From the NCBI GenBank assembly GCA_964570765.1, contig CAZMZF010000001.1, positions 47,626 to 111,625 of the forward strand: 64,000 nt of DNA. Reading direction: 5' to 3'. This DNA comes from an uncultured Ignavibacteria bacterium. GTDB taxonomy: Bacteria > Zixibacteria > MSB-5A5 > RBG-16-43-9. The position numbers and the translations under genes were made by a program. Position 1 is the first letter of the stretch. The number at the start of each line of letters is the position of its first letter. The notes beneath the pieces are model-generated. The model was not told where the DNA came from. It saw nothing but the letters and a program-made list of their open reading frames with translations, and did no database searches. Positions 3,499 through 61,042 of the stretch are shown here, one piece after another.

Positions 3499-3583
3499 AA
3501 AGGTTCAAGGGTTCAATGGTTCAAAAGCTCAAGGGAAAATAATGACAAATTATAGATGACAGATATAAAATAAAAGAATCATA

Positions 3584-3742
3584 GGCGGAGCACCTTGCTC
3601 CGCAAAAACGTAGATCGTAGAGTCCGACCTTTGTGTCGGACAATGAAAGGTTTATCGTAGCGCCCGTAGGGCAATGCGACCCTGTCCTACGGTGGCTACG
3701 CCAGACGTAGTCTCCGTTATTAGGAAAAGGGTCGCGCTACGA
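3584..3742. repeat. Cluster of REP-like palindromes (GGCGGAGC hairpin, GTCCGAC hairpin, GTAGCGC...GCGCTAC family)
   Basis: Nested palindromes. The last 65 bp (3678-3742) recur at 7725-7789 with one mismatch. Confidence 0.6.
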
Positions 3743-3753
3743 CAAAATATATT

Positions 3754-5813: not shown

Positions 5814-6048
5814 GAAAAAACGTTTTTCGTGACCGTTGTTCGTGAGCGTTGAAAAAATGTAGAGAGGTTCAATAGTTCAAAGGTTTAATAGTTCAAGGGC
5901 AAAAAAGATATAGAATTCATTGCGGGGAAACCAGGCCGGAATGACGAAATTCGTAGGACGTTCGCCCGACACGATGGTCGGGCGTTAAGAGTTTCAGCTA
6001 CTTGCTACATGCTACCTGCTAAGAGCTATTAATAGATGAGAGAGGTAA

Positions 6049-7647
6049 ATGATGGATGATAAACGCAAATTTTTCACCACCTCAAATATTCCCATAAACG
6101 AGCTTTATACTACAGAAGACCTTTCTGATTTCGATTACACCAGTAACTTAAGCTATCCGGGGAAATATCCTTTCACCCGTGGGGTGCAGAAGGATATGTA
6201 TCGGGGACGCTTGTGGACGATGAGGCAGTATGCTGGCTTTGGGACTGCTCTGGAGACTAATAAACGGTTCAAATATTTATTACAGAAGGGACAGACCGGT
6301 TTATCAATTGCCTTCGATCTTCCTACCCAAATCGGTTATGATTCTGACCATCCCTTATCCTCAGGTGAAGTGGGCAAAACCGGAGTAGCGATCGATACGC
6401 TTAAGGATATGGAAATACTTTTTGATGGAATTCCATTGGATAAAGTTAGCACCTCAATGACTATAAATGCTACAGCTTCAATCCTTTTAGCGATGTACGT
6501 GGCTTTAGCTAAAAAGCAAAATGTCCCCCTAAATCTACTCTCCGGCACGATTCAAAATGATATTCTAAAAGAATATATTGCCAGAGGAACATACATCTTT
6601 CCCCCTCGCCCTTCGATGAGACTTACTACTGACATTTTTAAATACTCCAGTGAAAATCTTCCAAAATTTAATCCAATAAGTGTTAGCGGTTATCATATCA
6701 GGGAGGCTGGGGCAACTGCGGTGCAGGAGATTGCTTTTACATTAGCTAACGGCATAACCTATGTGCAGGAAGCGATAAATTCCGGGCTGAAAGTGAATGA
6801 TTTCGCTAAACGGGTTTCATTTTTCTTGAATTCTCACAGTAATTTCTTTGAGGAGATAGCCAAGTTCAGAGCAGCCAGGAGGCTCTGGGCGAAAATTATA
6901 AAAGAGAGATTCAGGGCAGAAGAAGATGTATGTAAATTAAGATTTCACACTCAGACTGCAGGATGTACCCTTACTGCCCAACAGCCTGAAAATAATATAA
7001 TTAGAGTAGCCCTGCAGGCACTTTCCTCAATCCTGGGAGGGACTCAATCGTTACATACCAATTCAATGGATGAGGCATTAAGTCTTCCCTCACAAAAGTC
7101 AGCTGAAATAGCTTTAAGAACACAACAGATTATTGCCTATGAGAGCGGGGTTACTGATACGGTTGACCCCTTAGCTGGAGCTTATTTTATTGAAGCTTTG
7201 ACCAATAGAATAGAGGATGAGGCGAGAAAATATATAGATTATATCGTAAAGAATGGTGGTGCATTATGGGCGGTCGAATCTGGATATTATCAGAAAGAGA
7301 TTCAGAAAAGCGCTTATGAATATCAAAAGATGATAGAATCAAAAGAGAAAATTATTGTAGGGGTGAACAAATTTGAGGCTGAAGTTGAAAAAGAGAAAAG
7401 AAAAAAGATTTTTAAGGTAAGTAAAAAGGGAACATTGGATCAGATTAAAAGATTAAAAGAAGTAAAAGAAAAAAGAGATAAAGAAAAAGTGAAAAAGTCA
7501 CTGGATGAATTGAGAAATAAAATTAATACGGATGAGAATTTAATGTATCCGATAATTCATTGCGTAGAAGCTTATACCTCAATTGGTGAGATCTGCGAGG
7601 TCTTAAAAAGTGTCTGTGGAGAGTATGAACAGAAAGTAATAATTTAA
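6049..7647 (+). CDS. Methylmalonyl-CoA mutase, catalytic (N-terminal) subunit without a B12-binding domain
   Basis: 532 aa with the mutase TIM-barrel pattern (RMYAGFGT..., SIAFDLPTQ...). Lys-rich C-terminal linker and no cobalamin-binding DxHxxG domain. Confidence 0.8.
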   Translation: MMDDKRKFFTTSNIPINELYTTEDLSDFDYTSNLSYPGKYPFTRGVQKDMYRGRLWTMRQYAGFGTALETNKRFKYLLQKGQTGLSIAFDLPTQIGYDSDHPLSSGEVGKTGVAIDTLKDMEILFDGIPLDKVSTSMTINATASILLAMYVALAKKQNVPLNLLSGTIQNDILKEYIARGTYIFPPRPSMRLTTDIFKYSSENLPKFNPISVSGYHIREAGATAVQEIAFTLANGITYVQEAINSGLKVNDFAKRVSFFLNSHSNFFEEIAKFRAARRLWAKIIKERFRAEEDVCKLRFHTQTAGCTLTAQQPENNIIRVALQALSSILGGTQSLHTNSMDEALSLPSQKSAEIALRTQQIIAYESGVTDTVDPLAGAYFIEALTNRIEDEARKYIDYIVKNGGALWAVESGYYQKEIQKSAYEYQKMIESKEKIIVGVNKFEAEVEKEKRKKIFKVSKKGTLDQIKRLKEVKEKRDKEKVKKSLDELRNKINTDENLMYPIIHCVEAYTSIGEICEVLKSVCGEYEQKVII

Positions 7648-7678: not shown

Positions 7679-7789
7679 TGTAGCGCGAGGCCTCAAGGTC
7701 TTGAGACTTTCAGCCTCGCAATGTGACCCTGTCCTGCGGTGGCTACGCCAGACGTAGTCTCCGTTATTAGGAAAAGGGTCGCGCTACGA
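7679..7789. repeat. REP-like palindrome cluster (GTAGCGCGAGGC...GCCTCGC, then GACCCTGTCC...GGGTCGCGCTAC)
   Basis: Palindromes read from the sequence. The terminal 65 bp repeat 3678-3742. Confidence 0.6.
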
Positions 7790-7802
7790 AAGGTCGAAAA
7801 TT

Positions 7803-8201: not shown

Positions 8202-8326
8202 CACAGCTGATTGGAATGATTAAGCAAATTAAAAAATACGGATGACAGAGTTTTTCGTAGCGCCCGTAGGGCAATGCGACCCTAAAAGGTCGCGCTACGA
8301 AACTGCAACTTGATTAAGAGAATTAA

Positions 8327-9325: not shown

Positions 9326-9339
9326 GGTTCAAGTACTCC

Positions 9340-9390
9340 GTAGCGCGAGGCTTTTAGCCTCGCAATGCGACCCTGAAAGGGTCGCGCTAC
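9340..9390. repeat. REP element: GTAGCGCGAGGC-TTTTA-GCCTCGC-AATG-CGACCC-TGAAA-GGGTCGCGCTAC
   Basis: Double-hairpin palindrome with GTAG/CTAC termini, located 22 bp upstream of the RAYT gene. Confidence 0.75.
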
Positions 9391-9412
9391 GATTATAAGA
9401 AATGTAAATTAA

Positions 9413-9892
9413 ATGAAATATAGTTTTCAAAAGAGGATAAGATTAAAGGACTTTTCTTATAAAGGTTTGTGGAGATACTTCGTAACAATTTCGACGTACG
9501 AAGGTAAACGATATTTCGAAAATAATAAGTCTGTAGAGAGTTGTATTATTTATCTTAAAGATATATCGGTTTCATATAACTTCAACGTATTAGCGTATTG
9601 TTTTATGCCTGATCATTTGCATCTTTTGATTGAAGGAAAAGAGGAAGATTCTGATTTTAGGAAGTTTATGTCTATGTTTAAACAGAAGTCAAATTATCAT
9701 TGTAAAAACATCGAAGGAAATCCTCTTTGGCAAAAGGATTATTATGAACATGTTTTAAGAAGAAATGAGGATACTATACAGGTAATAAAGTATATATTAG
9801 ATAATCCGGTAAGAAAAGGGATGGTTAAGGATTTTAGAGATTATCCCTTTCTCGGTTCTTTTGTTTATGATTTAAAAGAGGTATTTTCGTAG
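9413..9892 (+). CDS. REP-associated tyrosine transposase (RAYT, IS200-like HUH Y1)
   Basis: HuH motif MPDHLHLLI and downstream catalytic Tyr region LWQKDYYEHVLR...NPVRKGMV. Same-family REPs flank the gene on both sides. Confidence 0.85.
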   Translation: MKYSFQKRIRLKDFSYKGLWRYFVTISTYEGKRYFENNKSVESCIIYLKDISVSYNFNVLAYCFMPDHLHLLIEGKEEDSDFRKFMSMFKQKSNYHCKNIEGNPLWQKDYYEHVLRRNEDTIQVIKYILDNPVRKGMVKDFRDYPFLGSFVYDLKEVFS

Positions 9893-9938
9893 CGCGAGGC
9901 TTCAGCCTCGCAATGCGATCCTAAAAGGATCGTCCTAC
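9889..9938. repeat. REP element of the same family. Its GTAG supplies the RAYT TAG stop codon
   Basis: GTAGCGCGAGGCTTCAGCCTCGCAATGCGATCCTAAAAGGATCGTCCTAC. Confidence 0.75.
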
Positions 9939-9978
9939 GAAAAGCAATACGAAAGACAAAAATATACAGGAGAACAAG

Positions 9979-11052
9979 ATGGGTCTTTTTGAGATGATGG
10001 AGGAGAAAGGGCATGAGCAGTTGATATTTTGCTACAATCAGCCCACGCATTTAAAAGCCATAATCGCTATCCACGATACTACCCTGGGAAAAGCAGTTGG
10101 AGGATGCAGGCTCTGGAAATATAATACAGAGAAAGAGGCGATTACGGATGCTTTGATTTTGTCTGAAATTATGACTTATCAATCTGCTATCTCGGATTGC
10201 GATACCGGCGGGGGCAAAGTAGTTTTGTGGCATGATTTTGAAGAAGAGCCGGATGAGGCTTATTACCGGGCTTTAGGGAGGTTTATCGAGGGGCTAAAGG
10301 GAAGGATCATTACCTATCCGGATTTAGGCACTGATACTCAGGAGATGAAGTACATTCGAAGAGAGACCGAGCATGTCCTTTTTTATGAGACCTCCTCAGG
10401 TTTGAGAGCGGAAAGCTCAGAGCTTACCGCTTATGGAGTTTACTGGGGGATGAAAGCCTGTGTTAAAGAGCTTTATGGTATATCCTCTTTAGATGGGCTT
10501 ACTGTGGCAATTCAAGGAGTAGGGAGTGTAGGTCGAATACTGGCTGATTATCTCAAGGAAGAAAAAGTAAAGCTTATCGTTACTGATTTGAACTATGATT
10601 CCATCAAAAAAGTTCAGGATAAATATCCGGATACAATTATTGCCAACCCTGAAAATATTTTAACCTGTGAATGCGATGTCTTTTCTCCCTGTGCTTTAGG
10701 TCCAGTATTCAGCAGGCAGAATATAGATAAGCTCCGATGTAAAATCATTGCTGGAGGAGCTTATAATATTTTAGAAGAGGCTTCATTGGCTGAGGAACTA
10801 TTTAAACGAGGGATTTTGTATGCTCCGGACTTTGTGATAAACAGTGGTGAGCTTTTTATGACTGCGGATGCTTTAAAGATATTATCCAAAGATGAAGCTT
10901 TAGCCTCAGCTAAAAAGATCTATGATATAATGGCAAAAGTACTGGCTATATCCAGAAGAGGGAATATCTCCCCTTATAAAGCTGCTTACCAGTTGGCAAA
11001 AGAAAGGATAATAAAAGTAGGGGATATAAAAAATATTTTATGTTGTATCTAA
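9979..11052 (+). CDS. Leucine/valine dehydrogenase (Glu/Leu/Phe/Val dehydrogenase family)
   Basis: 357 aa. IAIHDTTLG...GGCR motif and Rossmann GVGSVG motif. Confidence 0.85.
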   Translation: MGLFEMMEEKGHEQLIFCYNQPTHLKAIIAIHDTTLGKAVGGCRLWKYNTEKEAITDALILSEIMTYQSAISDCDTGGGKVVLWHDFEEEPDEAYYRALGRFIEGLKGRIITYPDLGTDTQEMKYIRRETEHVLFYETSSGLRAESSELTAYGVYWGMKACVKELYGISSLDGLTVAIQGVGSVGRILADYLKEEKVKLIVTDLNYDSIKKVQDKYPDTIIANPENILTCECDVFSPCALGPVFSRQNIDKLRCKIIAGGAYNILEEASLAEELFKRGILYAPDFVINSGELFMTADALKILSKDEALASAKKIYDIMAKVLAISRRGNISPYKAAYQLAKERIIKVGDIKNILCCI

Positions 11053-11158
11053 AAAACAGTTCAAAGGTTTAAAGGTTTAAAAGTTTAAAGGTAAAAAAGA
11101 AAATTAAACTGTTTACAATAAGAGTTCTTATCAAGGAAACAAAAGGATAGAAAAAAGT

Positions 11159-12250
11159 ATGAATAAGAAGAATAGTTTTAGAATTCTGGTAATCAACCCA
11201 GGTTCGACCTCTACCAAGGTCTCAATCTTTGAAGATGAAAAGGAGCTTTTTGGAAAAGCAATCTCCCATAGCAAATTAGAACTGGAGCCGTTTAAAAGAG
11301 TCTGGGATCAATATGAGTTCAGAAAGAAGCTGATTAAAGACTTATTGGAAGAGTATGAGATTAAGCCAGAAACTCTTTCGGCAGTAGTAGGTAGAGGTGG
11401 ACTTTTCAGGCCAGTGGTTGGTGGAACTTATCTGGTAAATGAACTGATGATCGAGGATGGTAGAAATGCTTTTGGAGGAGAACATGCGGCTAATTTAGGT
11501 GCAGTTTTAGCTTTTGGATTAGGCTGGGATTATCATATACCAGCCTTCATAGTGGATCCACCCTCTGTGGATGAATTCGAAGAATACTCCCGCTATTCAG
11601 GTTTACCGGAGTTTCCCAGGAAAAGTCTTTTTCATGCACTAAACGTAAAAGCCACAGCCCGATTAGCCGCAAACGATTTGAAGAAAAAGTTAGAGGAGAT
11701 AAATCTGATTGTGGCTCATTTAGGAGGTGGAGTTACCGTAGCGGCTCTGGAAAAGGGAAGAGCAATTGATGTTAATAATGGCTTGCACAGTGGTCCGTTT
11801 ACACCGGAAAGGTCTGGAACTTTGCCGATGTTTGATTTTGCGGAATGGTGTTTTTCCGGAAAAGTGACTTTAGAACAGGTGAAAAAAAGGATGGTGGGTG
11901 GTGGTGGTCTGGTGGCTTATTTAGGGACGAATGATGCTAAAGAGGTGGAAAAAAGAATAAAACAAGGGGATAAAAAGGCTGAAGCTGTCTATAATGCAAT
12001 GATCTATCAGATCGCCTGTGAAATCGGTGCCAGAGCTGTAGCCCTTAAGGGTAAGGTGGATGCTATCGTTTTAACCGGAGGATTAGCTTACTCGGATATG
12101 GTAGTTGAGAAGTTGAGAGAGTATGTGGGCTTTATTGCCAGGATATTAGTTTATCCAGGACAGGATGAGATGAAAGCTTTAGCTTTAGGGGCTCTCAGAG
12201 TATTAAGAGGGGAGGAGGAGGCAAAGACTTATCCGGAGATGGTCAAATAA
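11159..12250 (+). CDS. buk: Butyrate (branched-chain fatty acid) kinase
   Basis: RILVINPGSTSTK N-terminus and the acetate/butyrate-kinase fold pattern. Confidence 0.9.
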   Translation: MNKKNSFRILVINPGSTSTKVSIFEDEKELFGKAISHSKLELEPFKRVWDQYEFRKKLIKDLLEEYEIKPETLSAVVGRGGLFRPVVGGTYLVNELMIEDGRNAFGGEHAANLGAVLAFGLGWDYHIPAFIVDPPSVDEFEEYSRYSGLPEFPRKSLFHALNVKATARLAANDLKKKLEEINLIVAHLGGGVTVAALEKGRAIDVNNGLHSGPFTPERSGTLPMFDFAEWCFSGKVTLEQVKKRMVGGGGLVAYLGTNDAKEVEKRIKQGDKKAEAVYNAMIYQIACEIGARAVALKGKVDAIVLTGGLAYSDMVVEKLREYVGFIARILVYPGQDEMKALALGALRVLRGEEEAKTYPEMVK

Positions 12251-12377
12251 AAAACGTTCAAAAGCTTAAAAGTTCAAATGTTCAAAGGTAAAATATAAGT
12301 GATGTTGGAGTGCTTAGGTTGGTTCGGGAATTGTCGTTAAGATTTTCTAGGGTGAGAATTCCTGAACCAGAAACGTA

Positions 12378-16685: not shown

Positions 16686-17609
16686 TTATTTCACATAAGT
16701 AAGCCAGCCGTATTTATCTTCAGCCTCACCTGACACTATCTGGAAAAACCTCTCCTGTAATTTTGCAGTTATAGGACCTCGTTTTCCTGAACCAATGCTT
16801 ACCTTGTCGATTGAGCTTATCGGGGTAATCTCTGCGGCACTACCTGTAAAGAAAACCTCATCTGCGATATAAAGCGCTTCACGGGGGATATTTTCCTCGA
16901 TGACCTTTATTCCTAACTCCTGGGCTAAATAAAGTACCGTATTACGAATGATTCCTGGAAGTATAGAGGAACCAAAGGATGGGGTGATTAAAGCTCCATC
17001 CCTGACTATGAATATATTCTCACCGCTTCCCTCGCTTACATAGCCATAGACATCCAGAGCGATCCCCTCGACATAGCCATGCTCTTTGGCTTCTAATTTT
17101 ATCAACTGGGAGTTCATATAGTTGGCTCCGCTTTTTGCCATGGCTGGAAATGTGTTAGGTGCCATCCGGTTCCAGGAAGAGACACAAACCGGAACACCAT
17201 TCTCCAGAGCATCTTTGCCCAGATATTTTCCCCATTTCCAGACTGCAATTGAGACATCGATAGGACAGCCGGTTGGATCAACTCCCAATTGTTCGTATCC
17301 GCGGTAAGCCACCGGTCGAATATAGCATTCGTCTAATTTATTCACTTTTATAAGGTCGATTATTGCCTGATTGATCTCTTCTTTAGTATAGGTGATTTTC
17401 ATCCGGTAGATTTTGGCGGAATTAAAAAGCCTGTCAGTATGTTCTTTCAGTCGGAAAATAGCAGGACCTTTTTTGGATTTATAACATCTGGCCCCCTCAA
17501 AAACGCTGGAGCCATAATGCACCACATGGGAAAGGACGTGAATCATGGCATCATCCCAGTTCATCATCTTTCCATTCATCCATATTTTTTCAACTTTTTC
17601 AAACGGCAT
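16686..17609 (-). CDS. ilvE: Branched-chain amino-acid aminotransferase
   Basis: 307 aa. Class IV aminotransferase pattern (EGxGxNxF, ITPxxxxSILPGITR). Confidence 0.85.
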
Positions 17610-17630
17610 ATAAATCCTCCTTTTTTTCGT

Positions 17631-17663
17631 TAGGTCATAGGTAATAGGTTATAGGTCATAGGT
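17631..17663. repeat. Tandem heptamer array (NATAGGT) x5
   Basis: TAGGTCATAGGTAATAGGTTATAGGTCATAGGT. An inverted counterpart lies at 18442-18477. Confidence 0.6.
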
Positions 17664-17757
17664 TTTTAATACCTTAAAAATATTTTTCCAGTTTAATTTA
17701 ACAAAATTAATGATTCGCTTTCTATTTTCATATTTGTAAAACATATTTAATCCTTTA

Positions 17758-17952
17758 TTATTTTTTAGATTCCCAATAAATTATGATAACTGCCACATTA
17801 CGATATTTGCCCGGTCTTACTGCGTAAATAAATTGAACTATAGATTTATCCTTATTAGAATCCAGCCACTTATTAAGTGCTTTATTAACTGTCAGAGAAA
17901 ACATTTTGTCTTCAACTGGCTCTAACTCCACCGTATCAAATCCCCTATCCAT
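17758..17952 (-). CDS. Small hypothetical protein (64 aa)
   Basis: The only ORF in an AT-rich segment. No recognisable motif. Confidence 0.25.
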   Translation of the reverse strand: MDRGFDTVELEPVEDKMFSLTVNKALNKWLDSNKDKSIVQFIYAVRPGKYRNVAVIIIYWESKK

Positions 17953-18051
17953 AGATCTACTTTTAAAAAAGGTTTAAAGTTAACTGTTCCGTGAAAATTT
18001 TCTTTATAAAAAGTTTAGACTACATTTTAAAAAACCTCCTCACACTCTGGA

Positions 18052-18441
18052 TTAACGGTGGAACAGTACTTTCTGTCTTTCTAAAGACCTTTCTAATCCC
18101 TTTAACATCCTTCCACATTCATCATACCGTGCAATATAATCAGTGTAGAGTTCCTTAGTGAGATAATTTTTTTTAAAAGCTATAGTTAGATGATGTGCAG
18201 TTTCTCTTAATTCTCCTAAGGCTCTATTTATGCCTTCTAAATAAAGATTTATATGTTTATTATTCCAGCCCTCAGCCAGATTAGCTGGAATCGAATTAGA
18301 AGACCTTCTTAACTGCGAACCTAACTCATGCAACTCGAATTTAGGGAAAGCTAATGTCAATTTATGAATATCCAAATGCAGCTTACAGAGCTTCTGATAA
18401 ACTTCTAAATCCTCAAAACTTTTAATCCTTTCCTTTTCCAT
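18052..18441 (-). CDS. Four-helix-bundle protein (family often found in 23S rRNA intervening sequences, TIGR02436-like)
   Basis: FEDLEVYQK...IPANLAEGW motif. The track ORF starts at a GTG codon at 18456. The in-frame ATG at 18441 is the likely start. Confidence 0.65.
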   Translation of the reverse strand: MEKERIKSFEDLEVYQKLCKLHLDIHKLTLAFPKFELHELGSQLRRSSNSIPANLAEGWNNKHINLYLEGINRALGELRETAHHLTIAFKKNYLTKELYTDYIARYDECGRMLKGLERSLERQKVLFHR

Positions 18442-18477
18442 CCTACTACCTACCACCTATTACCTATCACCTACTAC
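18442..18477. repeat. Tandem heptamer array (ACCTAY) x5, inverted relative to 17631-17663
   Basis: CCTACTACCTACCACCTATTACCTATCACCTACTAC. Overlaps the ptb2 stop region. Confidence 0.6.
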
Positions 18478-19366
18478 TTGCCACCCCCAAGGCAATCGAC
18501 ATAAACTTGGTCTCGTGTGAATCAGCCCTTGAAGTTAAGACCACTGGTGCTTTTGTGCCTAAGACGACAGCGGCGCATTTTGCTTTTGCAAATTCAACTA
18601 AAGTCTTGTAAATAGCATTCCCCGTCTCAATATCCGGGCAAAGGAGGATATCTGCTTTTCCTGCTATAGGACTTTTCACCCCTTTTATCCTAGCAGATTC
18701 CTCGGAGATGGCATTATCTAAGCCAAAAGGACCATCTACAATCGCACCTTTGATCTGTCCCCTTTTTGCCATCATTGAAAGACAGGCGGCATCTACAGTT
18801 GCTGGCATCTTTTCTGGATTGACCTTTTCCGTTGCGGCAATGCAGGCAACTTTGGGTTTTTCAATCCTTAGAGATATTGCTAAATCCACAGCATTCTGTA
18901 TTATCTGAGCTTTTTCCATAAGGGTGGGGGCGATATTTATGGCCGTATCAGTTAGGAGTAAAAGTCGAGGAAAATCCGGTATCTCAAAAACCGCTATATG
19001 GGTCAGAAGTTTTCCTATGGCTAACCCTTTTTCTTTATCCAAAATCCCCTTCATAAAAATACCGGTATCTAAAAGCCCTTTCATCATCAAATCTGCTTTT
19101 CCCTGATGGATTAATTGAGTGCAAAAAAGTGAGACTTTAAGTAAATCTTTTTCCTCGATTAATTCATACTCTGAGAGGTTTATCTTATTTTTATCAGCCA
19201 ACTCTTTTATCTTCTCCTTGGAACCAACTAAAATACCCTGAACAATTTTTTCTCTGCGTGCCTGGTCTAAAGCTAAGAAAACTTTTTCATCCTCAGCCTT
19301 AGCCACAGCAATTCTCTTGGGTCCGATTGATTTGGCTAAGTTTAATATCTCCCTTAGTTCCTTCAT
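18467..19366 (-). CDS. ptb: Phosphate butyryltransferase, second paralogue
   Basis: Roughly 45% identical by eye to 15751-16647. Same domain order. Confidence 0.85.
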   Translation of the reverse strand: MKELREILNLAKSIGPKRIAVAKAEDEKVFLALDQARREKIVQGILVGSKEKIKELADKNKINLSEYELIEEKDLLKVSLFCTQLIHQGKADLMMKGLLDTGIFMKGILDKEKGLAIGKLLTHIAVFEIPDFPRLLLLTDTAINIAPTLMEKAQIIQNAVDLAISLRIEKPKVACIAATEKVNPEKMPATVDAACLSMMAKRGQIKGAIVDGPFGLDNAISEESARIKGVKSPIAGKADILLCPDIETGNAIYKTLVEFAKAKCAAVVLGTKAPVVLTSRADSHETKFMSIALGVASSR

Positions 19367-19867
19367 AGATTTCCCTTGTCAAAAAAGTTCGGTATAATAT
19401 ATTGATTAAGAAGATATTTATCAACAGAAAAGATGAAAAGAAATATCAGATTTTATATTAAACGATAGAATTTAAAATACATAAAAGGGCGACCCGCCGG
19501 GTCGTCCCTACGATCTGTAAACGATGAAAGAACGTTGTAAGGAGAGAGGATAGGGGAGAGGTTTTATTTTGTCGATAAAGGAATTAAGACCAGTAGGGCG
19601 GAAACCTTCAGGTTTCCATATTATTTGAAAATGGAAAGTTGAAATCTCAAGACTTTGTCCGAAATTGGATCCATAGGAACGGTCTTCCGCTACAAAAAAC
19701 AAGAAGAGGGCAGGGGAGAGGTTTTAAAAAATTCTTGCCAAAAATAATTTATATGCTATACTTACAAGTGGAGAAGTAAGTTAGACACCAGAGAGTTTCC
19801 GTCAAGTCAGTCCGCCTGAGGTGGATGACGGGCATATTGAAAAATAAAAAATTGGAAGGAGGTTTTT

Positions 19868-20248
19868 ATGGCCTTCTGTCTTTTCTGCGGAAAAGAAATA
19901 ATGGAGGGTAATAACTTTTGTCAATTTTGTGGTTACTCGAACAGTTTAGCCCTTCCCTTTCCTTCAACTAAGATTAGCTTTTCTAATATATTATTAGCTT
20001 CCTTGGGATTGATTTCAGGAATAGGCTCATGTATTTTCTCTTTGCTCCCATATTACAATTATTTAGGATTTATTCTGGTCATATCCACGGTTGTCTTTTC
20101 AGGTATTTCTCTGGAGAAACTCGCTAAAAAATTTGACACTGTTCCGATTAAAGTTCTTTCAGTAATTGCTCTGGTTTTTGCTGCGGTAGGCTACCTTCTT
20201 TTTATTTTTTATAACTCCCGTATGCCTGGCAGTGGGAGCCATGCTTGA
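19868..20248 (+). CDS. Small membrane protein with an N-terminal zinc-ribbon (CxxC...CxxC)
   Basis: CLFCGKEI...CQFCG followed by 3 hydrophobic helices. Confidence 0.5.
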   Translation: MAFCLFCGKEIMEGNNFCQFCGYSNSLALPFPSTKISFSNILLASLGLISGIGSCIFSLLPYYNYLGFILVISTVVFSGISLEKLAKKFDTVPIKVLSVIALVFAAVGYLLFIFYNSRMPGSGSHA

Positions 20249-21516: not shown

Positions 21517-21706
21517 GTTAGACGTTAGACGGAAGACGTGAGACGATTTTTATCGTTATCCAATATCTGCCATCCGTTATTTTCTATTTTAATTTCCCCT
21601 CTTCCTTCTTCCATCTTCCTTTGCTAAGGGCAGACACATAAGTCTACCATTTTTTATCTGTCATCCATCATTCGACATTCGTCATTCTTTTTATCTTCCT
21701 TTTCTT

Positions 21707-22771: not shown

Positions 22772-22929
22772 AGTTTAATTAATTTAAAGTTTGTAAATTA
22801 GTAGTGCGACCCTTTTAGGGTCGCCTTAGCGAGGCTAAAAGCCTCGCACTACGAAAGCTTCCTGGTAAACCTGAAGGTTTACACTCCATAATTACGTTCA
22901 CGAAAAACGAATAACGTTCACGTTTTTTC

Positions 22930-23703: not shown

Positions 23704-23917
23704 TTCTCCTCCTTTGATTGTTGAATTGTTTTTCGTAGTGCGACCCTTCAGGGTCGCTTAAGCAAGACTAAAGCCTCGCACTTCTTTTTGAAGTCTACAG
23801 GCTAAAATCCGTAGGGACAACCCTTATGATTGTCCGAAATCGGTAGAACAGACATTCCTGTCTGTTCATCGTAGTCAGACAAGAATGTCTGACTTACCAA
23901 TACCAAGAGCCTATTGC

Positions 23918-28981: not shown

Positions 28982-29505
28982 CGAGTAAACCTCCTGTTCT
29001 TGTGATTTATATCAAAAAAAGCAAAAATTCTTCTGTTTTATATATAATCTTTTTTAAATCAAGATTCAAGGATTTTCTTTCATACTTTGAGATTTTTTTC
29101 ACAAGGTATTTTATAGGGACCACCCTTGTTGAACTTTGTGAAATCCCCGCCAAAGGCGGGGGTGGTTGTCCGTATTTCGTAGTGCGACCCTTTTAGGGTC
29201 GCCTGGGAACTATCTATTGCGGAGACGCATGCAATGCGTCTCTACGTTTCTTTTAGCTTCTGCGGAGCAAGTCCGCCTCTGGCGGAAGCTTACGATTCTA
29301 CATTTGTCATTTCCTACGGATCCGTTTCTCGGACTGAGCAAGTCCGCCTTTGGCGAGACGATCGAAGAATCTCTTAAACTTGACAAGAGAATAGATTCTT
29401 CGTCCGCCTTTGGCGAGACTCAGAATGACAGTTCATTGTGTCCCTTGAGCCTTTGAACCCCTCAACCACATAAGCGAGGCTAAAGCCTCGCACTACGAAA
29501 AAAAT
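28982..29505. repeat. 524-bp intergenic region made almost entirely of REP palindromes inside a long minus-strand catabolic gene string
   Basis: Palindrome families CCGCCAAAGGCGG, GTAGTGCGACCC...GGGTCGC, GAGACGCATGCAATGCGTCTC, TCCGCCTCTGGCGGA, ...CTCAGAATGAC and GCGAGGCTAAAGCCTCGCACTAC. Confidence 0.6.
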
Positions 29506-32314: not shown

Positions 32315-32407
32315 TTTTTAAGTCCTTTAAAGAACGATCCTTCGTTGCCACAGGAGTCGTAACGCTACGATTTTTTCCCCTTTGAACCTTTGAACTTTTA
32401 AACTGTT

Positions 32408-44863: not shown

Positions 44864-45011
44864 ATTGTCTTACTCCTTTCTGTCATTCTGAGGGACTCCG
44901 CTTTTGGTGAGACGACCGAAGAATCTAATTTAGCGGATAGATTCTTCCCCCGCCAAAAGCGGGGTCAGAATGACATTGATTTGCTACAAGCTACTTGCTA
45001 CATGCTTCAAG

Positions 45012-45815
45012 CTATTTTTTCCTCTTCTCTATCCAGTATCCTATATTCCCCAAGATCACCAAAATTATAATCAGAAGATGAGCTATGGATTGGGCATCCA
45101 TACCTCTTGCGCCCATACCAGGTTGACCCAGCAAAATCTCATATTCTGCAGCTCCTTTGAGTCCATTGACCAGTCCCTGGATCTGTCCGGAATTTAAAAA
45201 AGGATAAAAACTGGTTGCCATAACTGCAGTCGTTAAAACAAACAATTTTTTTTCATATCTTGCCACTGCATAATTTATCCAGGAAAAAGGTATATCCCCG
45301 TCAGTAACTGAGATTATAAGAGCTATCTTTTTATAATCTTTTATCTCTTTAGTCAGTTCCAGATCAAAAGTTGAATTACCAGTATAATCCTCAGGAAAGA
45401 CCTGATGGAAATCCTCTCCCAATCCTAAGATGGTAGCAGTAACCTGTGGTCTGAATCCCAAGAAAACATAATCTTTCCCATAGGTTTTATTATGTTTTAA
45501 AGCGTTTTCCTTTAAGACCTTTTCTCCTAAAGCGGTCCCTTCAGCTAAAAGGGAAAGACCTATAGCTTTCAGATTTTTTGAAAAAGAGTGTTGTAAAATT
45601 GCATTGGCTAAAGGCTGGACCTCTGGAAAAGATGAGGCTTCAAAATCAAAGGAGATTAAAACCACTGAGCTGTCTTCTAAATTATTTATTTTCTCAAATA
45701 CATTTTTGACCTCTGGAGTTACCTTATTCGGCAGGCTTAGTTTAAAAATCAGAGGGAAGATTACCGCTACTGCCATCAGGATGAATATCGTTTTTCGGTT
45801 AAAATTTAGTTTCAT
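45012..45815 (-). CDS. Membrane-anchored protein (N- and C-terminal TM helices), unknown function
   Basis: Hydrophobic N- and C-termini. Confidence 0.5.
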   Translation of the reverse strand: MKLNFNRKTIFILMAVAVIFPLIFKLSLPNKVTPEVKNVFEKINNLEDSSVVLISFDFEASSFPEVQPLANAILQHSFSKNLKAIGLSLLAEGTALGEKVLKENALKHNKTYGKDYVFLGFRPQVTATILGLGEDFHQVFPEDYTGNSTFDLELTKEIKDYKKIALIISVTDGDIPFSWINYAVARYEKKLFVLTTAVMATSFYPFLNSGQIQGLVNGLKGAAEYEILLGQPGMGARGMDAQSIAHLLIIILVILGNIGYWIEKRKK

Positions 45816-46101
45816 ATTCTCTTTTGGTGGAACAGATATCCTGTCACTTCTTATTATCAGACAGGAATGTCTGACCTACCACTTTTTTGGACCCACCTTG
45901 GGGGCAAGGTGGGTCTACCGATTTAAGGATAGAATTCACCGAAGGTGGATTCTGTCCCTCCAACCAGTTTCGTCGGGCGTGAAGCCCGACGCTACGAGCA
46001 TTCACTCTTTCACCATCGGATCAGTCCGCTTGAGGTGGACGACGGACACATAACTCCATATTTTTGCTACAAGCTCCTTGCTACGTGCTACCTGCTTAAA
46101 T

Positions 46102-46722
46102 TCATCCTTTACCCAAATAGGTTCTCTCGATTCCAACAATTATCCTTAAAGATGTGGCTATAGAGCCCAGACCGATTCCGATTAAAATCCCTCTTCTGGC
46201 AGCCATACTGGGGATATTCAGTACCCAGGTTGCAGATTGAGGTATAGATGAATGAATCATCTCTCCTATGGGGACTCGGCCTAAGATGACTAAAATCCCA
46301 GCAATCAGAAGGATGGTTGCCTGTATATTTCTTGCCCTGAAACCTCGATAAGCGGCTGAGGCAACAAAAAAAGCTAAAAGTGAAAACATAGTTGACTGCA
46401 TTGGGACCTGGAGATTATCGAAAATCCATAAAAAAGGCGAGCCCTTCTGAATTCCCTTCCAGAAGCCAAAAAATACCATAATAAGAAGTCCGACTATGGC
46501 AACTGAGTTATATCCCCAACCCTTTTGTTTCTTAGATATTTTTTCCAGATGGAGAAGTAAAAAACTTAAAGCGCCGACCAAGAGTGCAAAAACGTAGATT
46601 ATCTGCATCCAGTCTAAAACATTTTGATAACCTTTTAGAAAAAGAGGATGGGGCACAAAAAACTGTGCCAGCATAAATGCCCCAAAACCAAAACATACCC
46701 AGAGAGGTATCTGCCTGCTCAT
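46102..46722 (-). CDS. Integral membrane protein, unknown function
   Basis: Multiple TM helices. Confidence 0.5.
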   Translation of the reverse strand: MSRQIPLWVCFGFGAFMLAQFFVPHPLFLKGYQNVLDWMQIIYVFALLVGALSFLLLHLEKISKKQKGWGYNSVAIVGLLIMVFFGFWKGIQKGSPFLWIFDNLQVPMQSTMFSLLAFFVASAAYRGFRARNIQATILLIAGILVILGRVPIGEMIHSSIPQSATWVLNIPSMAARRGILIGIGLGSIATSLRIIVGIERTYLGKG

Positions 46723-50400: not shown

Positions 50401-50630
50401 GATTTATGTAGGGGCACGGCGCACCGTGCCCCTACGGATGTCATTGCGACCCCGCCACAGGAGGGGGAAGCAATCTGCTGACTATGTGAAGGTTGCTTCG
50501 TCGTCCCCGAAGGGGGCTCCCCGCAATGACAGGTAAAAGAAAAATATTTTGAAATTTTTCTTGCTTTTTGAAAAGTTATCTATATGTTAGTTAATGGTAG
50601 TATAAAAAACCTAAAACTAAGGAGTGGAAG

Positions 50631-52277: not shown

Positions 52278-52456
52278 AAAAAGTTCAAGGGTTTAAGAGT
52301 TTAAAGGTTCAAAGGGAAAAAAGAAGTGGAATTGATTCGGGTTTCGTGAACGTAAATATAACCTTACCCTAACCCTATCATTAGGAAGGAGAGGGGATGA
52401 ATTATGTACAGTAGAGGTTCAAAATTTTGAACCCTTACTTTTTTCCAAATTCAGTT

Positions 52457-54315: not shown

Positions 54316-54545
54316 TTATCAAAAAGCGTTTGTTTTTTCCAGTTGAAAGATTTATAATAAAAAATGAGTATGGAATAAGGAAGATGGAAAATGAAAAATG
54401 GAATAGGTAAAAAGTAGTAAACCGTTAGTGGAGATTTATGTATAGGTATTGACAATTTAGTTTAGAGTGTGTCATGGAAAATAAAAACGTAACGTTATCT
54501 TTACAAAGTTACCAAAATATGATTTAATTATGAAGAGAGTAAGCA

Positions 54546-55025: not shown

Positions 55026-55225
55026 AGAACGTTTAATCCGCCAAAGGCGGACAAAAGTTCAAAGGCTCAAAGGAAGAAAAAATAATAATGGATGAAGAAT
55101 GACGAATGACGGAAAAAATATTGTAGGGGCAACCCCCTGCGGTTGCCCATTATGGGAGCAGGCGCTGGAGCCTGCCCCTACATAAAATATAAAATGTCAA
55201 CACTTATGAATTCAGAGGTCAATAG

Positions 55226-60312: not shown

Positions 60313-61042
60313 ATGAGCAAGGGAATTTTTTACATTGGAGTTGATGTGGGGCAAGAGGAGTTATGGGTAGCAATAGAAGGACACAAGCCACATTCTTTTA
60401 CCCATACTGTGGCTGGCGCTAAGGAGTTGTGGAATTGGATTCGGAAGAGAGTAATCCTGAGGCAACTTTGCATTTCTGTATGGAAGCTACCGGAGTCTAT
60501 AGTCAGAGATTAGCAGCCATTCTTTCCAACTATGAGGATACAGAGATTAGCATTATCAATCCAGCCCAAATCGCCTCCTTTTCTAAAGCCCAACTCAAGC
60601 GTAGTAAAACTGATCGAATAGACTGTCAGGTCATTGTATCAAAACCCAGATCCAGCTTCTCTGCAGTGTTCAGTGCATAGGAGAAGGCACTGCTACTCAC
60701 TTGCTAGCCTATGGCAAAACAGCGCTGACCAATTATTCAGTCAGAGCTTTAGTGGCTCATGTCGGGATAGCGCCCAGACACCGACAATCCGGAATCTCAG
60801 TTTGGGGCAAAAGCCACCTGGCTAAAGAAGGAGATAAACGCTTACGCTGTATCCTTTATATGCCTACTCTTGTCGGAATTGTACCTAACCCTATCCACAA
60901 GAAATTCTACCAAAGACTATTGGCTAAGGGTAAACCCAAAAAGGTAGCTTTAATCGCTTGTATGAAAAAGTTACTGCTTATCGTTAGAGCTATCCTGATC
61001 AAACAAGTTCCATTTAACCCGGCTATCCAAGGCGTAATATGA
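60313..61042 (+). pseudogene. IS110-family transposase remnant (frameshifted and internally deleted)
   Basis: N-terminal DEDD-type segment IFYIGVDVGQEELWVA. C-terminal segment VAHVGIAPRHRQSG...ALIACMKKLL is typical of the IS110/IS116/IS902 C-domain. The remnant is split over three frames and only about 240 of an expected ~350 aa remain. Confidence 0.7.

Follow-up and report, generated by a model that had tools for sequence, protein, structure and literature searches.

Introduction

Intervening sequences (IVSs) that bear an open reading frame (ORF) are known from the 23S rRNA genes of the Leptospira, Coxiella, Xanthomonas and Brucella type, in which the S23p ORF is carried, and their insertion sites are helix 25 or helix 45 of the 23S rRNA. 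In the IVS of Coxiella, the heptamer GACAGAT is repeated three to four times before the S23p ORF with a copy number that varies among strains, and the termini form a 28-bp stem, in which RNase III cleaves at the first repeat (PMC4990558). The protein of this IVS is probably not made and its ORF has been reported to be decaying, though the arms persist (PMC4990558). In this study, a locus of comparable anatomy was analysed in a Zixibacteria genome, within a stretch of 64,000 nt of contig CAZMZF010000001.1 (hereafter the window, by which the full stretch is meant). The locus consists of a gene encoding a four-helix-bundle (4HB) protein and of two arrays of tandem heptamers that flank the gene in inverted orientation. 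These arrays are, with little doubt, the arms of an IVS-type element, which can be described as a promoterless single-gene cassette composed of a purine-rich heptamer array, the 4HB ORF and the inverse heptamer array, and which lies co-directionally inside the ptb-BCAT-ptb2 fermentation operon. The explanation as a whole, in which an IVS-type 4HB cassette rides in an operon, has the arms as integral parts and makes use of RNA pairing and RNase III, is given a probability of about 0.55. How the arms act (RNA stem with RNase III, protein-binding iterons, or both) and how the cassettes move is what we infer from the comparisons described below, in which L-numbers denote the comparison loci that were fetched.

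The heptamer arms in the window

18442-18485, minus strand: 5' arm; it reads in transcript sense ...GTAGTAGGTGATAGGTAATAGGTGGTAGGTAGTAGG, directly followed by the ATG of the 4HB gene, and is made of TAGGTNN units
18052-18441, minus strand: 4HB gene, 129 aa, family PF05635 (23S_rRNA_IVP) and TIGR02436
17631-17663, minus strand: 3' arm; it reads in transcript sense ACCTATGACCTATAACCTATTACCTATGACCTA, five NNACCTA units inverse to those of the 5' arm

Tandem Repeats Finder detected arrays of period 7 at 17631-17663 (4.7 copies, 88% matches, unit TAGGTCA) and at 18442-18485 (6.3 copies, unit CCTACCA). Positions 17631-17662 and 18442-18473, with 32 nt each and 779 nt between them, were 84% complementary. 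Furthermore, a pattern of three TAGGTNN units, TAGGTNNTAGGTNNTAGGT, allowing up to two mismatches, matched at both arms and nowhere else in the 64 kb; 0.08 matches were expected by chance, and the observed count was reached in none of 100 shuffles. By all three measures, the array at 17631-17663 and its inverse from 18442 on, to which the first-pass annotation had drawn attention, are real, and the search for further arrays that it had proposed, which was run within the window, located the motif at no other place. Its repeat unit, NATAGGT, was correct in the period of 7; the conserved unit is better described as TAGGT plus two variable bases, with approximately five to six units in the 5' arm and five in the 3' arm. 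The AT-rich character of the intervening segment was also borne out, with a GC content of 0.25-0.34 between the arms versus 0.40 for the window.

The 5' arm overlaps the last codons of ptb and its TGA stop (18469-18467), abuts the ATG of the 4HB gene and has stop codons in each of the three sense-strand frames; the 3' arm contains stops in three frames on both strands. The predicted energy of the duplex formed by the two arms was -43.1 kcal/mol, compared with -15.7 +/- 3.3 kcal/mol for shuffles. In addition, when an RNA of 876 nt was folded, the minimum free energy (MFE) and centroid structures were both closed by the stem between the arms.

Conservation of the arms across the 4HB family

The best 80 genomic loci of 4HB relatives, with identities from 100% to 31%, together with other loci, provided 81 cassettes at approximately 77 loci; flanks of 56 nt were analysed, and the flanks of other genes in those loci were used as the control. 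The labels of the metagenome-assembled genomes sampled included Zixibacteria, Ignavibacteria, Thermodesulfovibrionia, Verrucomicrobia, Kiritimatiellia, Omnitrophota, Planctomycetota, Acidobacteriota, candidate phyla radiation lineages and one Ca. Argoarchaeum, and 4HB identity across phyla was 57-88%. For the 81 homologues, the mean identity at lag 7 was 0.52 upstream and 0.47 downstream, against approximately 0.29 at other lags and in control flanks. A best 28-nt segment with a lag-7 identity of at least 0.7 was present upstream in 51 of 81 cassettes and downstream in 51 of 80, versus 7 of 220 and 12 of 223 controls, respectively.

Across the cassettes, the downstream array was the inverse of the upstream array. 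The upstream consensus heptamer agreed with the reverse complement of the downstream heptamer at 5.3 of 7 positions in the same cassette versus 4.2 of 7 across cassettes, and the duplex energy of a cassette's own arm pair was better than that of cross-locus pairs in 62 of 81 cases (p 2e-8). Close relatives (at least 57% identity) use NAGGTNN in the forms TAGGTGA, AAGGTGA, GGGAGGTG, CGGGTGA and TAGATTA, the form tracking genome composition, and distant subfamilies use ACGGAAG, GAAGACA, GAAGTCA, TACGTCC, ACGGACA, ATCGTTA, GTAGGGA and GGGAAAA, each time with the complement downstream. The modal unit count per arm is 4-5, within a range from 3 to more than 10, and 63% of the 5'-arm units have a G at position 6, which gives AGGTG. 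The cassette is co-oriented with the upstream gene in 65 of 76 cases and with the downstream gene in 51 of 60, and the spacers (median 52 nt upstream and 50 nt downstream) are filled entirely by the arms. Stops in all three upstream frames were found in 43 of 81 cassettes, and many cassettes possess a separate canonical Shine-Dalgarno (SD) sequence between the arm and the ATG. Homologous 4HB genes at unrelated loci of many phyla carry matching arms, so the proposal that the arrays are terminal inverted repeats (TIRs) of an insertion-like unit with an rRNA-IVS-type gene was essentially right.

The same architecture was found in other replicons. A tblastn search of a plasmid collection returned 36 records, mostly from Nostocales. 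Among finished genomes, the 4HB gene is flanked by (GTAGGGA)n and (TCCCTAC)n in N. edaphicum, by (TAGGGTG)n and (CTACACC)n in Calothrix brevissima, by (GGGAAAA)n and (TTTTCCC)n in Geminocystis, and by G-rich 8-mers and their complement in N. punctiforme. An alternative complex III (ACIII) operon (L016, logan SRR25580105_1007) contains three 4HB genes, 77%, 34% and 31% identical to the query, among actB, actC, actD and an actE/cytochrome gene, of which the first alone has clear AGGT/ACCT arms. The contig with the archaeal label Ca. Argoarchaeum (L043, CAJHIS010000036.1) bears a 65%-identical cassette with arms of the GGTGATG/CACCCAA type, by transfer or contamination.

The family also occurs in rRNA. 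In Azospirillum lipoferum AZO_p2 (L331), a 4HB ORF lies inside the large-subunit (LSU) rRNA (RF02541, 1132 bits), preceded by GACGGAT GACAGAG GACGGAG GACAGAA, that is, (GACRGAN)x4-5, and followed by ATCCGTC CTCTGTC TTCTGTC ATCCGTC, that is, (NTCYGTC)x4-5; this heptamer is the one reported for the Coxiella IVS. The 23S rRNA IVS context that had been attributed to the family is confirmed by this case. Because native rRNA is without such arrays, the heptamer arms belong to the element and not to the target: they move together with the ORF, into rRNA as well.

Related genomes at the ptb-BCAT junction

Near-identical strains have arrays identical to those of the window. In four further loci (L008, L012, L021 and L022), the 4HB gene is located at the ptb-BCAT junction, with a 4HB product 81-84% and a BCAT 83-97% identical to those of the window, and a fifth locus, L038, is arranged as in the window (4HB 78%, BCAT 89%). 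The latter contig (DATKKH010000133.1) is labelled Terriglobales yet has a ptb-4HB-BCAT locus of the Zixibacteria type, which may be a binning error. The arms of these relatives are TAGGTNN and NNACCTA with varying unit numbers and spacers, contrary to the idea that the arrays might be coincidental simple sequence confined to this locus, with array-free relatives. The relatives' cassettes measure approximately 470-540 bp, the region of a 64-aa ORF is missing from them, and the 3' arm begins approximately 0-35 nt past the 4HB stop. The AT-rich block of 800 bp therefore does not stand as the unit; to judge from these relatives, about 390 nt of it is a lineage-specific addition, because the 64-aa ORF has no homologue except itself.

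The comparison with related genomes that the first-pass annotation had suggested revealed three states of this junction among Zixibacteria: cassette present, cassette absent, and a solo arm alone. In the loci without the 4HB gene (L202-L206), BCAT is 82-86% identical to that of the window. The ptb-BCAT spacer is a clean 84 nt in L206 and 134 nt with a small palindrome in L203 and L204. L205 has a solo heptamer array, TRGTTRY x4, directly after the ptb stop (5' type), and L202 has a solo ACCTAAN array directly before the BCAT SD, as a retained 3' arm. Moreover, the C-terminus of ptb reads ALGVASC[KQR][EKR] before the stop in cassette-free loci and ALGVASSR or GVIGSRS before the stop in cassette bearers; it is altered in the bearers alone, and the change starts exactly at the 5' arm. 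From this difference it follows, as far as the aligned loci tell, that the 5' arm takes the place of the final ptb codons and supplies the stop. At the level of the sequences compared, the cassette at this junction is clearly dispensable and separable. As for a target-site duplication, comparisons with the cassette-free loci L206, L203 and L205, by which the spacer has largely been replaced, gave no recognisable direct repeat.

The ratio of nonsynonymous to synonymous substitution (dN/dS) of the 4HB gene was 0.03-0.08 versus orthologues, at a dS greater than 1, a pattern by which the gene is judged to be under purifying selection, and the core of the arms was kept despite this saturation of synonymous sites. 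Between the window and L008, dS was 1.48 for the 4HB gene, 0.43 for ptb and 0.26 for BCAT. The three- to sixfold excess of the 4HB gene over the flanking genes hints that the cassette may have been replaced or converted at a fixed site.

Gene context and encoded products

22771-21707, minus strand: ldh, Leu/Val dehydrogenase (Pfam)
21516-20449, minus strand: buk, butyrate kinase (Pfam)
19868-20248, plus strand: zinc-ribbon gene, 126 aa, between buk and ptb
19396-19424, minus strand: promoter-like site TTGATA-17-TATATT upstream of ptb, a consensus match alone
18467-19366, minus strand: ptb (Pfam), with the C-terminus ALGVASSR before the stop
17664-18051, minus strand: AT-rich filler specific to the lineage, from the 4HB stop to the 3' arm
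17758-17952, minus strand: orphan 64-aa ORF inside the filler, with an additional 31-aa ORF call
17616-17621, minus strand: SD AGGAGG of BCAT, 10 nt past the 3' arm and outside the predicted stem
16686-17609, minus strand: BCAT coding sequence (Pfam)
16647-15751, minus strand: second ptb (ptb2; Pfam)

The genes ldh, buk, ptb, 4HB, BCAT and ptb2 are co-directional, with the zinc-ribbon gene as the exception, and a second ldh-buk pair lies on the plus strand at 9979-12250, 5.4 kb away with six other genes between. The block is thus not placed exactly between two mirror-image ptb/buk/ldh sets, as the first reading of the locus had it. No terminator-like site was found between ptb and BCAT, and the site at 19396-19424 is a candidate start of a ptb-4HB-BCAT-ptb2 transcript. 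The arrays had also been proposed as tandem sites for a regulator acting divergently on BCAT and 4HB promoters. This was rejected, as ptb, the 4HB gene, the 64-aa ORF and BCAT share the minus strand and apparently form a single transcription unit, where the 5' array separates the ptb stop from the 4HB start and the 3' array precedes the BCAT SD. An Rfam scan of 16.5-20.5 kb gave no rRNA match and nothing relevant. The zinc-ribbon gene was conserved at this position in all of the related Zixibacteria loci examined, whether or not they had the 4HB cassette, and the 500-nt spacer at 19367-19867 contains hairpins resembling repetitive extragenic palindromic (REP) sequences.

The 4HB product matched PF05635 with 99 bits (cutoff 33.8, E 2.2e-28) and TIGR02436 with 91 bits (cutoff 24). 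Its closest structural match in the PDB was 2gsc (E 7e-7), which is the Xanthomonas 4HB protein XCC0516; 2rld was also matched, and five chains are listed for each entry. The structure 2gsc has been described as a homopentameric toroid (PMC4990558). The 64-aa ORF belongs to no Pfam or NCBIfam family and has no homologue but itself among 5.8 billion proteins. It was considered as a partner gene and is treated as an orphan within filler, being familyless and without a homologue outside the lineage. The content reported for the block, an rRNA-IVS-type 4HB gene and a 64-aa ORF, was accordingly correct, with the latter being an orphan.

Heptamer arrays without a 4HB gene

Arrays located more than 300 nt from a cassette matched its heptamer at 6 or more of 7 positions in 34% of cases in the same locus versus 7% across loci (p 2e-6), and many of these same-locus arrays without an ORF are short inverted pairs (L082, L053 and L031). 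Among metagenomic loci with four TAGGTNN units, 3 of 120 abut a 4HB ORF. An inverse partner is located within 300 nt downstream for 15 of 56 imperfect metagenomic arrays and upstream for none, and about one third of the metagenomic arrays start within 15 nt of the stop of an upstream gene on the same strand. None of 80 viral loci with four TAGGTNN units (102 matching stretches) adjoins a 4HB gene; these are mostly perfect microsatellite or telomere-like runs. TAGGTNN arrays are not diagnostic of a 4HB gene, since so few of these viral and metagenomic loci adjoin one.

Dispersed heptamer arrays have been described in several bacteria. The GGGAATC repeat of Xanthomonas forms 186 arrays, with 70 convergent pairs, in X. 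campestris (Rehm 2015, PMC4692102), and the supplementary table of the same work lists array 15, 6 nt from bccP, which overlaps the start of XCC0516 (PMC4692102). The GGGGAYT arrays of Nostoc, which belong to the short tandemly repeated repetitive (STRR) sequences, were described without a protein partner (PMC4692102), as were the TAACTGA arrays of Beggiatoaceae, cyanobacteria and Bacteroidetes (MacGregor 2015, PMC4679880).

The window itself contains further repeats. The 190-nt ldh-buk spacer (21517-21706, minus strand) harbours heptamer arrays of GAATGAC, GGAAGAN and CGTCTNN, the last of which directly adjoins the buk ATG, where no SD is obvious; in the predicted fold of the spacer, GGAAGAN pairs with CGTCTNN (MFE -38.2, z -3.2), and these arrays are a candidate ORF-less relative of the cassette. 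Heptamers of the GAAGACG type are the arms of 4HB cassettes in Kiritimatiellia (L076-L080). Two arrays have the same sense relative to transcription as arrays of this spacer, namely 54370-54403 as 21600-21621 (GGAAGAN) and 55092-55111 as 21669-21687 (GAATGAC). GTAGCAN follows minus-strand stops in sense orientation at 44982-45014 and approximately 46065-46098, and its inverse, GCTACNT, is present at 5996-6028 upstream of a gene starting at 6049; across these three distant loci, the family is present in either orientation with respect to transcription.

Octamer arrays of GGTTCAAR / AGTTTAAA with three to four units are located at 3499-3535, 5865-5896, 11058-11099, 12252-12286, 32379-32404 (minus), 52279-52315, 55055-55075 and approximately 29465-29445 (minus). 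They start no more than a few bases from the stop of the upstream gene, are always in gene sense, have no inverse partner in the window and are often followed by GAATGAC-type heptamers and then by a REP hairpin. Dozens of CGTAG...CTACG hairpins are present in the spacers of the window (for example at 3600-3750, 7690-7790, 8250-8310, 22850-22900, 23860-23900, 28985-29350 and 50405-50530). A gene for a REP-associated tyrosine transposase (RAYT) is located at 9413-9892 (region 9326-9978; NF047646 113 bits, cutoff 80; Pfam Y1_Tnp), with nested REP-like hairpins, CGTAGCGCGAGGC..GCCTCGCAATGCGACCC..GGGTCGCGCTACG, on either side. A frameshifted pseudogene of an IS110-family transposase was recognised at 60313-61042 from stitched frames (DEDD_Tnp_IS110 E 2e-13, Transposase_20 E 2e-10).

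Discussion

RNA pairing with RNase III processing is tentatively put forward as the main mode of action of the arms, at a little under even odds. The cassette would be transcribed by read-through of the host operon, and once the 3' arm had been made, the arms would pair into an imperfect stem of approximately 29 pairs over 32 nt, which would loop out the ORF and sequester the 4HB start region. The stem would then be cut by RNase III, as has been shown experimentally for the Coxiella IVS, and the cut would separate the ptb, 4HB and BCAT-ptb2 RNAs or spare the flanking cistrons. Moreover, a period of 7 is not a multiple of 3, and the TAG, TGA or TAA of the units would thus fall in every frame; any upstream reading frame would therefore be closed wherever the element lands, which explains how an arm can terminate ptb.

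Several observations weigh against this interpretation. Selection for pairing at the RNA level predicts an excess of G.U among the mismatches between arms, and no such excess is seen, the mismatches being mostly transversions at the two variable positions (170, versus 52 G.U and 62 A.C). The variable dinucleotides of AGGT-type cassettes match at 0.36 in their own cassette versus 0.27 across cassettes (p 0.37), arm lengths are weakly correlated (rho 0.26), and 38 of 81 arm pairs exceed composition-matched shuffles at z < -3. Most metagenomic TAGGTNN arrays are solo and unable to form a stem, and in Pseudanabaena the arrays around a 4HB gene inserted between cas6 and cas4 of a CRISPR-Cas locus are direct and not inverted; in the P. 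galeata plasmid pPg_01 (L334), the 4HB gene at 46268-46627 has (AAAGCTA)x14 upstream and (AAAGCCA)x10 downstream. Furthermore, three-frame stops are not universal, several heptamers being stop-free, cleavage of the cassette by RNase III would be an extrapolation from rRNA IVSs, and the difference among genomes at ptb-BCAT is readable as a gain or as a loss of the cassette. Two candidate tests were set aside: the asymmetry of G.U and A.C mismatches in gapless arm alignments, intended as a discriminator between the RNA and DNA levels, gave no signal, and the greater stability of sense than antisense structures (58 of 81) is best explained by purine-rich spacers and was not used.

It is possible that the heptamers are instead putative binding sites (iterons) for the element's own pentameric 4HB protein, contacted as single-stranded RNA or DNA wound around the toroid or as double-stranded DNA, a model that is less probable than pairing. 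By binding, the protein would control its own gene or tag the element for maintenance or mobility, the four to five units per arm would match approximately five subunits, and the arms would be complementary incidentally, through the placement of one site in inverted orientation. The units indeed have a 5-nt core at a fixed 7-nt spacing with free spacers, in which the non-compensatory mismatches lie, and the core is kept though synonymous sites are saturated. The type of heptamer changes with the protein subfamily, which is equally expected from co-inheritance of ORF and arms. The modal count of 4-5 units fits such a protein, as does the pentameric toroid described for the nearest solved structure, 2gsc (PMC4990558), with five chains listed for both 2gsc and 2rld, although unit numbers extend from 3 to more than 10. 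The direct arrays of Pseudanabaena fit binding and not pairing, solo arrays are common, and other arrays of the same locus share the cassette heptamer exactly in 19.5% of cases versus 0.65% across loci (30-fold). The 4HB family also includes Avd, a protein of diversity-generating retroelements (DGRs) that binds nucleic acid and reverse transcriptase. On the other side stand the proximity of a 4HB gene to 3 of 120 TAGGTNN arrays and the persistence of the Coxiella arms though the protein is probably not made (PMC4990558). Binding by the 4HB protein is kept as a strong rival of, or complement to, pairing because a conserved core, a fixed spacing and free spacers look like multimeric binding sites. 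It is unlikely that the arms are primarily DNA-level TIRs for transposition or site-specific recombination by an enzyme acting in trans, for example a Y1/RAYT enzyme on single-stranded DNA hairpins, with ORF-less inverted heptamer pairs as non-autonomous forms resembling miniature transposable elements with inverted repeats (MITEs). One type of cassette does occur at many unrelated insertion points and in rRNA, it is present or absent at the ptb-BCAT site, and the 4HB dS of 1.48 versus 0.26-0.43 in the neighbours suggests replacement of the cassette; ORF-less inverted pairs with a matching heptamer are found nearby in several genomes and in 15 of 56 metagenomic arrays, always with the purine arm first (the reverse in 0 of 52), and a RAYT gene is 8 kb away. 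However, the cassette has no transposase or recombinase, its ORFs being the 4HB gene and the orphan, no target-site duplication is recognisable, and near-identical copies are lacking, TAGGTNN being unique in the 64 kb and the 4HB genes of L016 being 31-77% identical to the query. Moreover, the locus is stably inherited across a Zixibacteria clade with saturated dS, and the REP hairpins of the RAYT in the window are a different class of sequence.

Translational signals alone are a still more doubtful explanation. The 5' array would act as a run of SD-like AGGTG(A) with frame-independent stops and the 3' array as an anti-SD-like TCACCT mask, so that the arrays would adjust the translation of the 4HB gene and decouple it from ptb and BCAT. 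The 3' end of 16S rRNA is complementary to AGGTGAT, and this explanation would account for the G at position 6, the ptb stop in the arm that abuts the 4HB ATG, and the stops in three sense frames of both window arms. The argument of "stops in all frames" has a precedent for TAACTGA arrays (MacGregor 2015, PMC4679880). Nevertheless, the TACGTCC, GAAGTCA and ACGGACA subfamilies have neither SD resemblance nor stops, many cassettes have a separate canonical SD, three-frame upstream stops are limited to 43 of 81 cassettes, and the same arms are found inside rRNA, where translation signals are irrelevant. As a universal explanation, SD and anti-SD signals were rejected because of the non-SD heptamers and the arms in rRNA. 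Hardly credible, finally, is a coincidental slippage-prone simple sequence or a set of operators for a regulator on divergent BCAT and 4HB promoters. Bacteria in general have an excess of heptamer simple sequence repeats (SSRs; cited in PMC4692102 and PMC4679880) and many other 7-8-nt arrays exist in the window, but position, orientation and core are conserved across phyla, the units are imperfect and not products of recent slippage, and the co-directional genes leave no divergent promoters.

A wider proposal is offered more speculatively than the pairing mechanism. 4HB cassettes with heptamer arms may constitute a class of selfish element that is widespread and as yet without a name; its ORF-bearing form would be autonomous, with a pentameric 4HB protein that recognises its own iterons; the rRNA IVS would be a special case, and dispersed heptamer arrays would be ORF-less, MITE-like derivatives or remnants. 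If this is true, such derivatives or remnants would include the cyanobacterial STRR, the Xanthomonas GGGAATC repeat and perhaps TAACTGA and several arrays of the window. STRR were reportedly described in 1990, and GGGAATC and TAACTGA in 2015. Two loose ends would be joined, namely the conserved and abundant TIGR02436 proteins and the heptamer repeats, which are the most over-represented class of long SSR in bacteria and have no accepted function. No paper stating a general link between 4HB genes and heptamer arrays was found in a search that left subscription literature outside its scope, and the link appears to be undescribed. The interest of the locus lies in the general architecture and in this possible link to unexplained bacterial heptamer repeats. 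For annotation, operon spacers with such arms are probably processed, and the element can supply the stop codon of the upstream gene, as for ptb.

Comparison with known systems

The window 4HB protein shares its fold and superfamily with DGR Avd and matches the Avd model weakly, with 28.3 bits on NF033474 versus a cutoff of 80. No DGR reverse transcriptase and no template or variable repeats were found within 5 kb on either side, where the neighbours are metabolic genes (ptb, BCAT, buk and ldh); the sub-cutoff score and these neighbours rule out a DGR. Like the gene cassettes of integrons, the 4HB cassette is a single promoterless ORF with imperfect inverted repeats, expression by read-through and co-directional insertion; unlike them, it is without an integrase or attI, has periodic repeats on both sides in place of attC and is scattered in ordinary operons. 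MITEs and the REP-RAYT system are likewise small intergenic elements with inverted repeats, and their autonomous and non-autonomous forms resemble the ORF-bearing and ORF-less arrays, but the arms of the cassette are tandem heptamers and not unique TIRs or GTAG-type palindromes, and neither a transposase nor a target-site duplication was seen.

The dispersed heptamer arrays (STRR, GGGAATC and TAACTGA) are closer in form, being imperfect intergenic 7-mers that often begin at the upstream stop codon and often make convergent inverted pairs. They differ in their high copy number and in the use of a single heptamer by each genome, TAGGTNN being confined to the cassette in the 64 kb; furthermore, they have been read as G-quadruplex or regulatory repeats and were not tied to 4HB genes in the papers describing them.

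The closest system is the 23S rRNA IVS. The PF05635/TIGR02436 protein is common to both, the element is closed by terminal inverted repeats (arms of 32 nt with 84% complementarity in the window), tandem heptamers lie directly upstream of the ORF (in Azospirillum, and in Coxiella with a stem of 28 bp, or 4 x 7), and neither has an enzyme of its own. The differences are the location, which is the ptb-BCAT junction in place of helix 25 or 45 of the rRNA, the heptamer TAGGTNN, an ORF evidently under strong purifying selection versus the decaying ORF of Coxiella, and excision by RNase III, which was shown for Coxiella and is proposed here by analogy. The window element is not filed as an rRNA IVS because one defining feature, its location, fails; its anatomy is equal to that of the rRNA IVS, and by this analogy it very probably works likewise.

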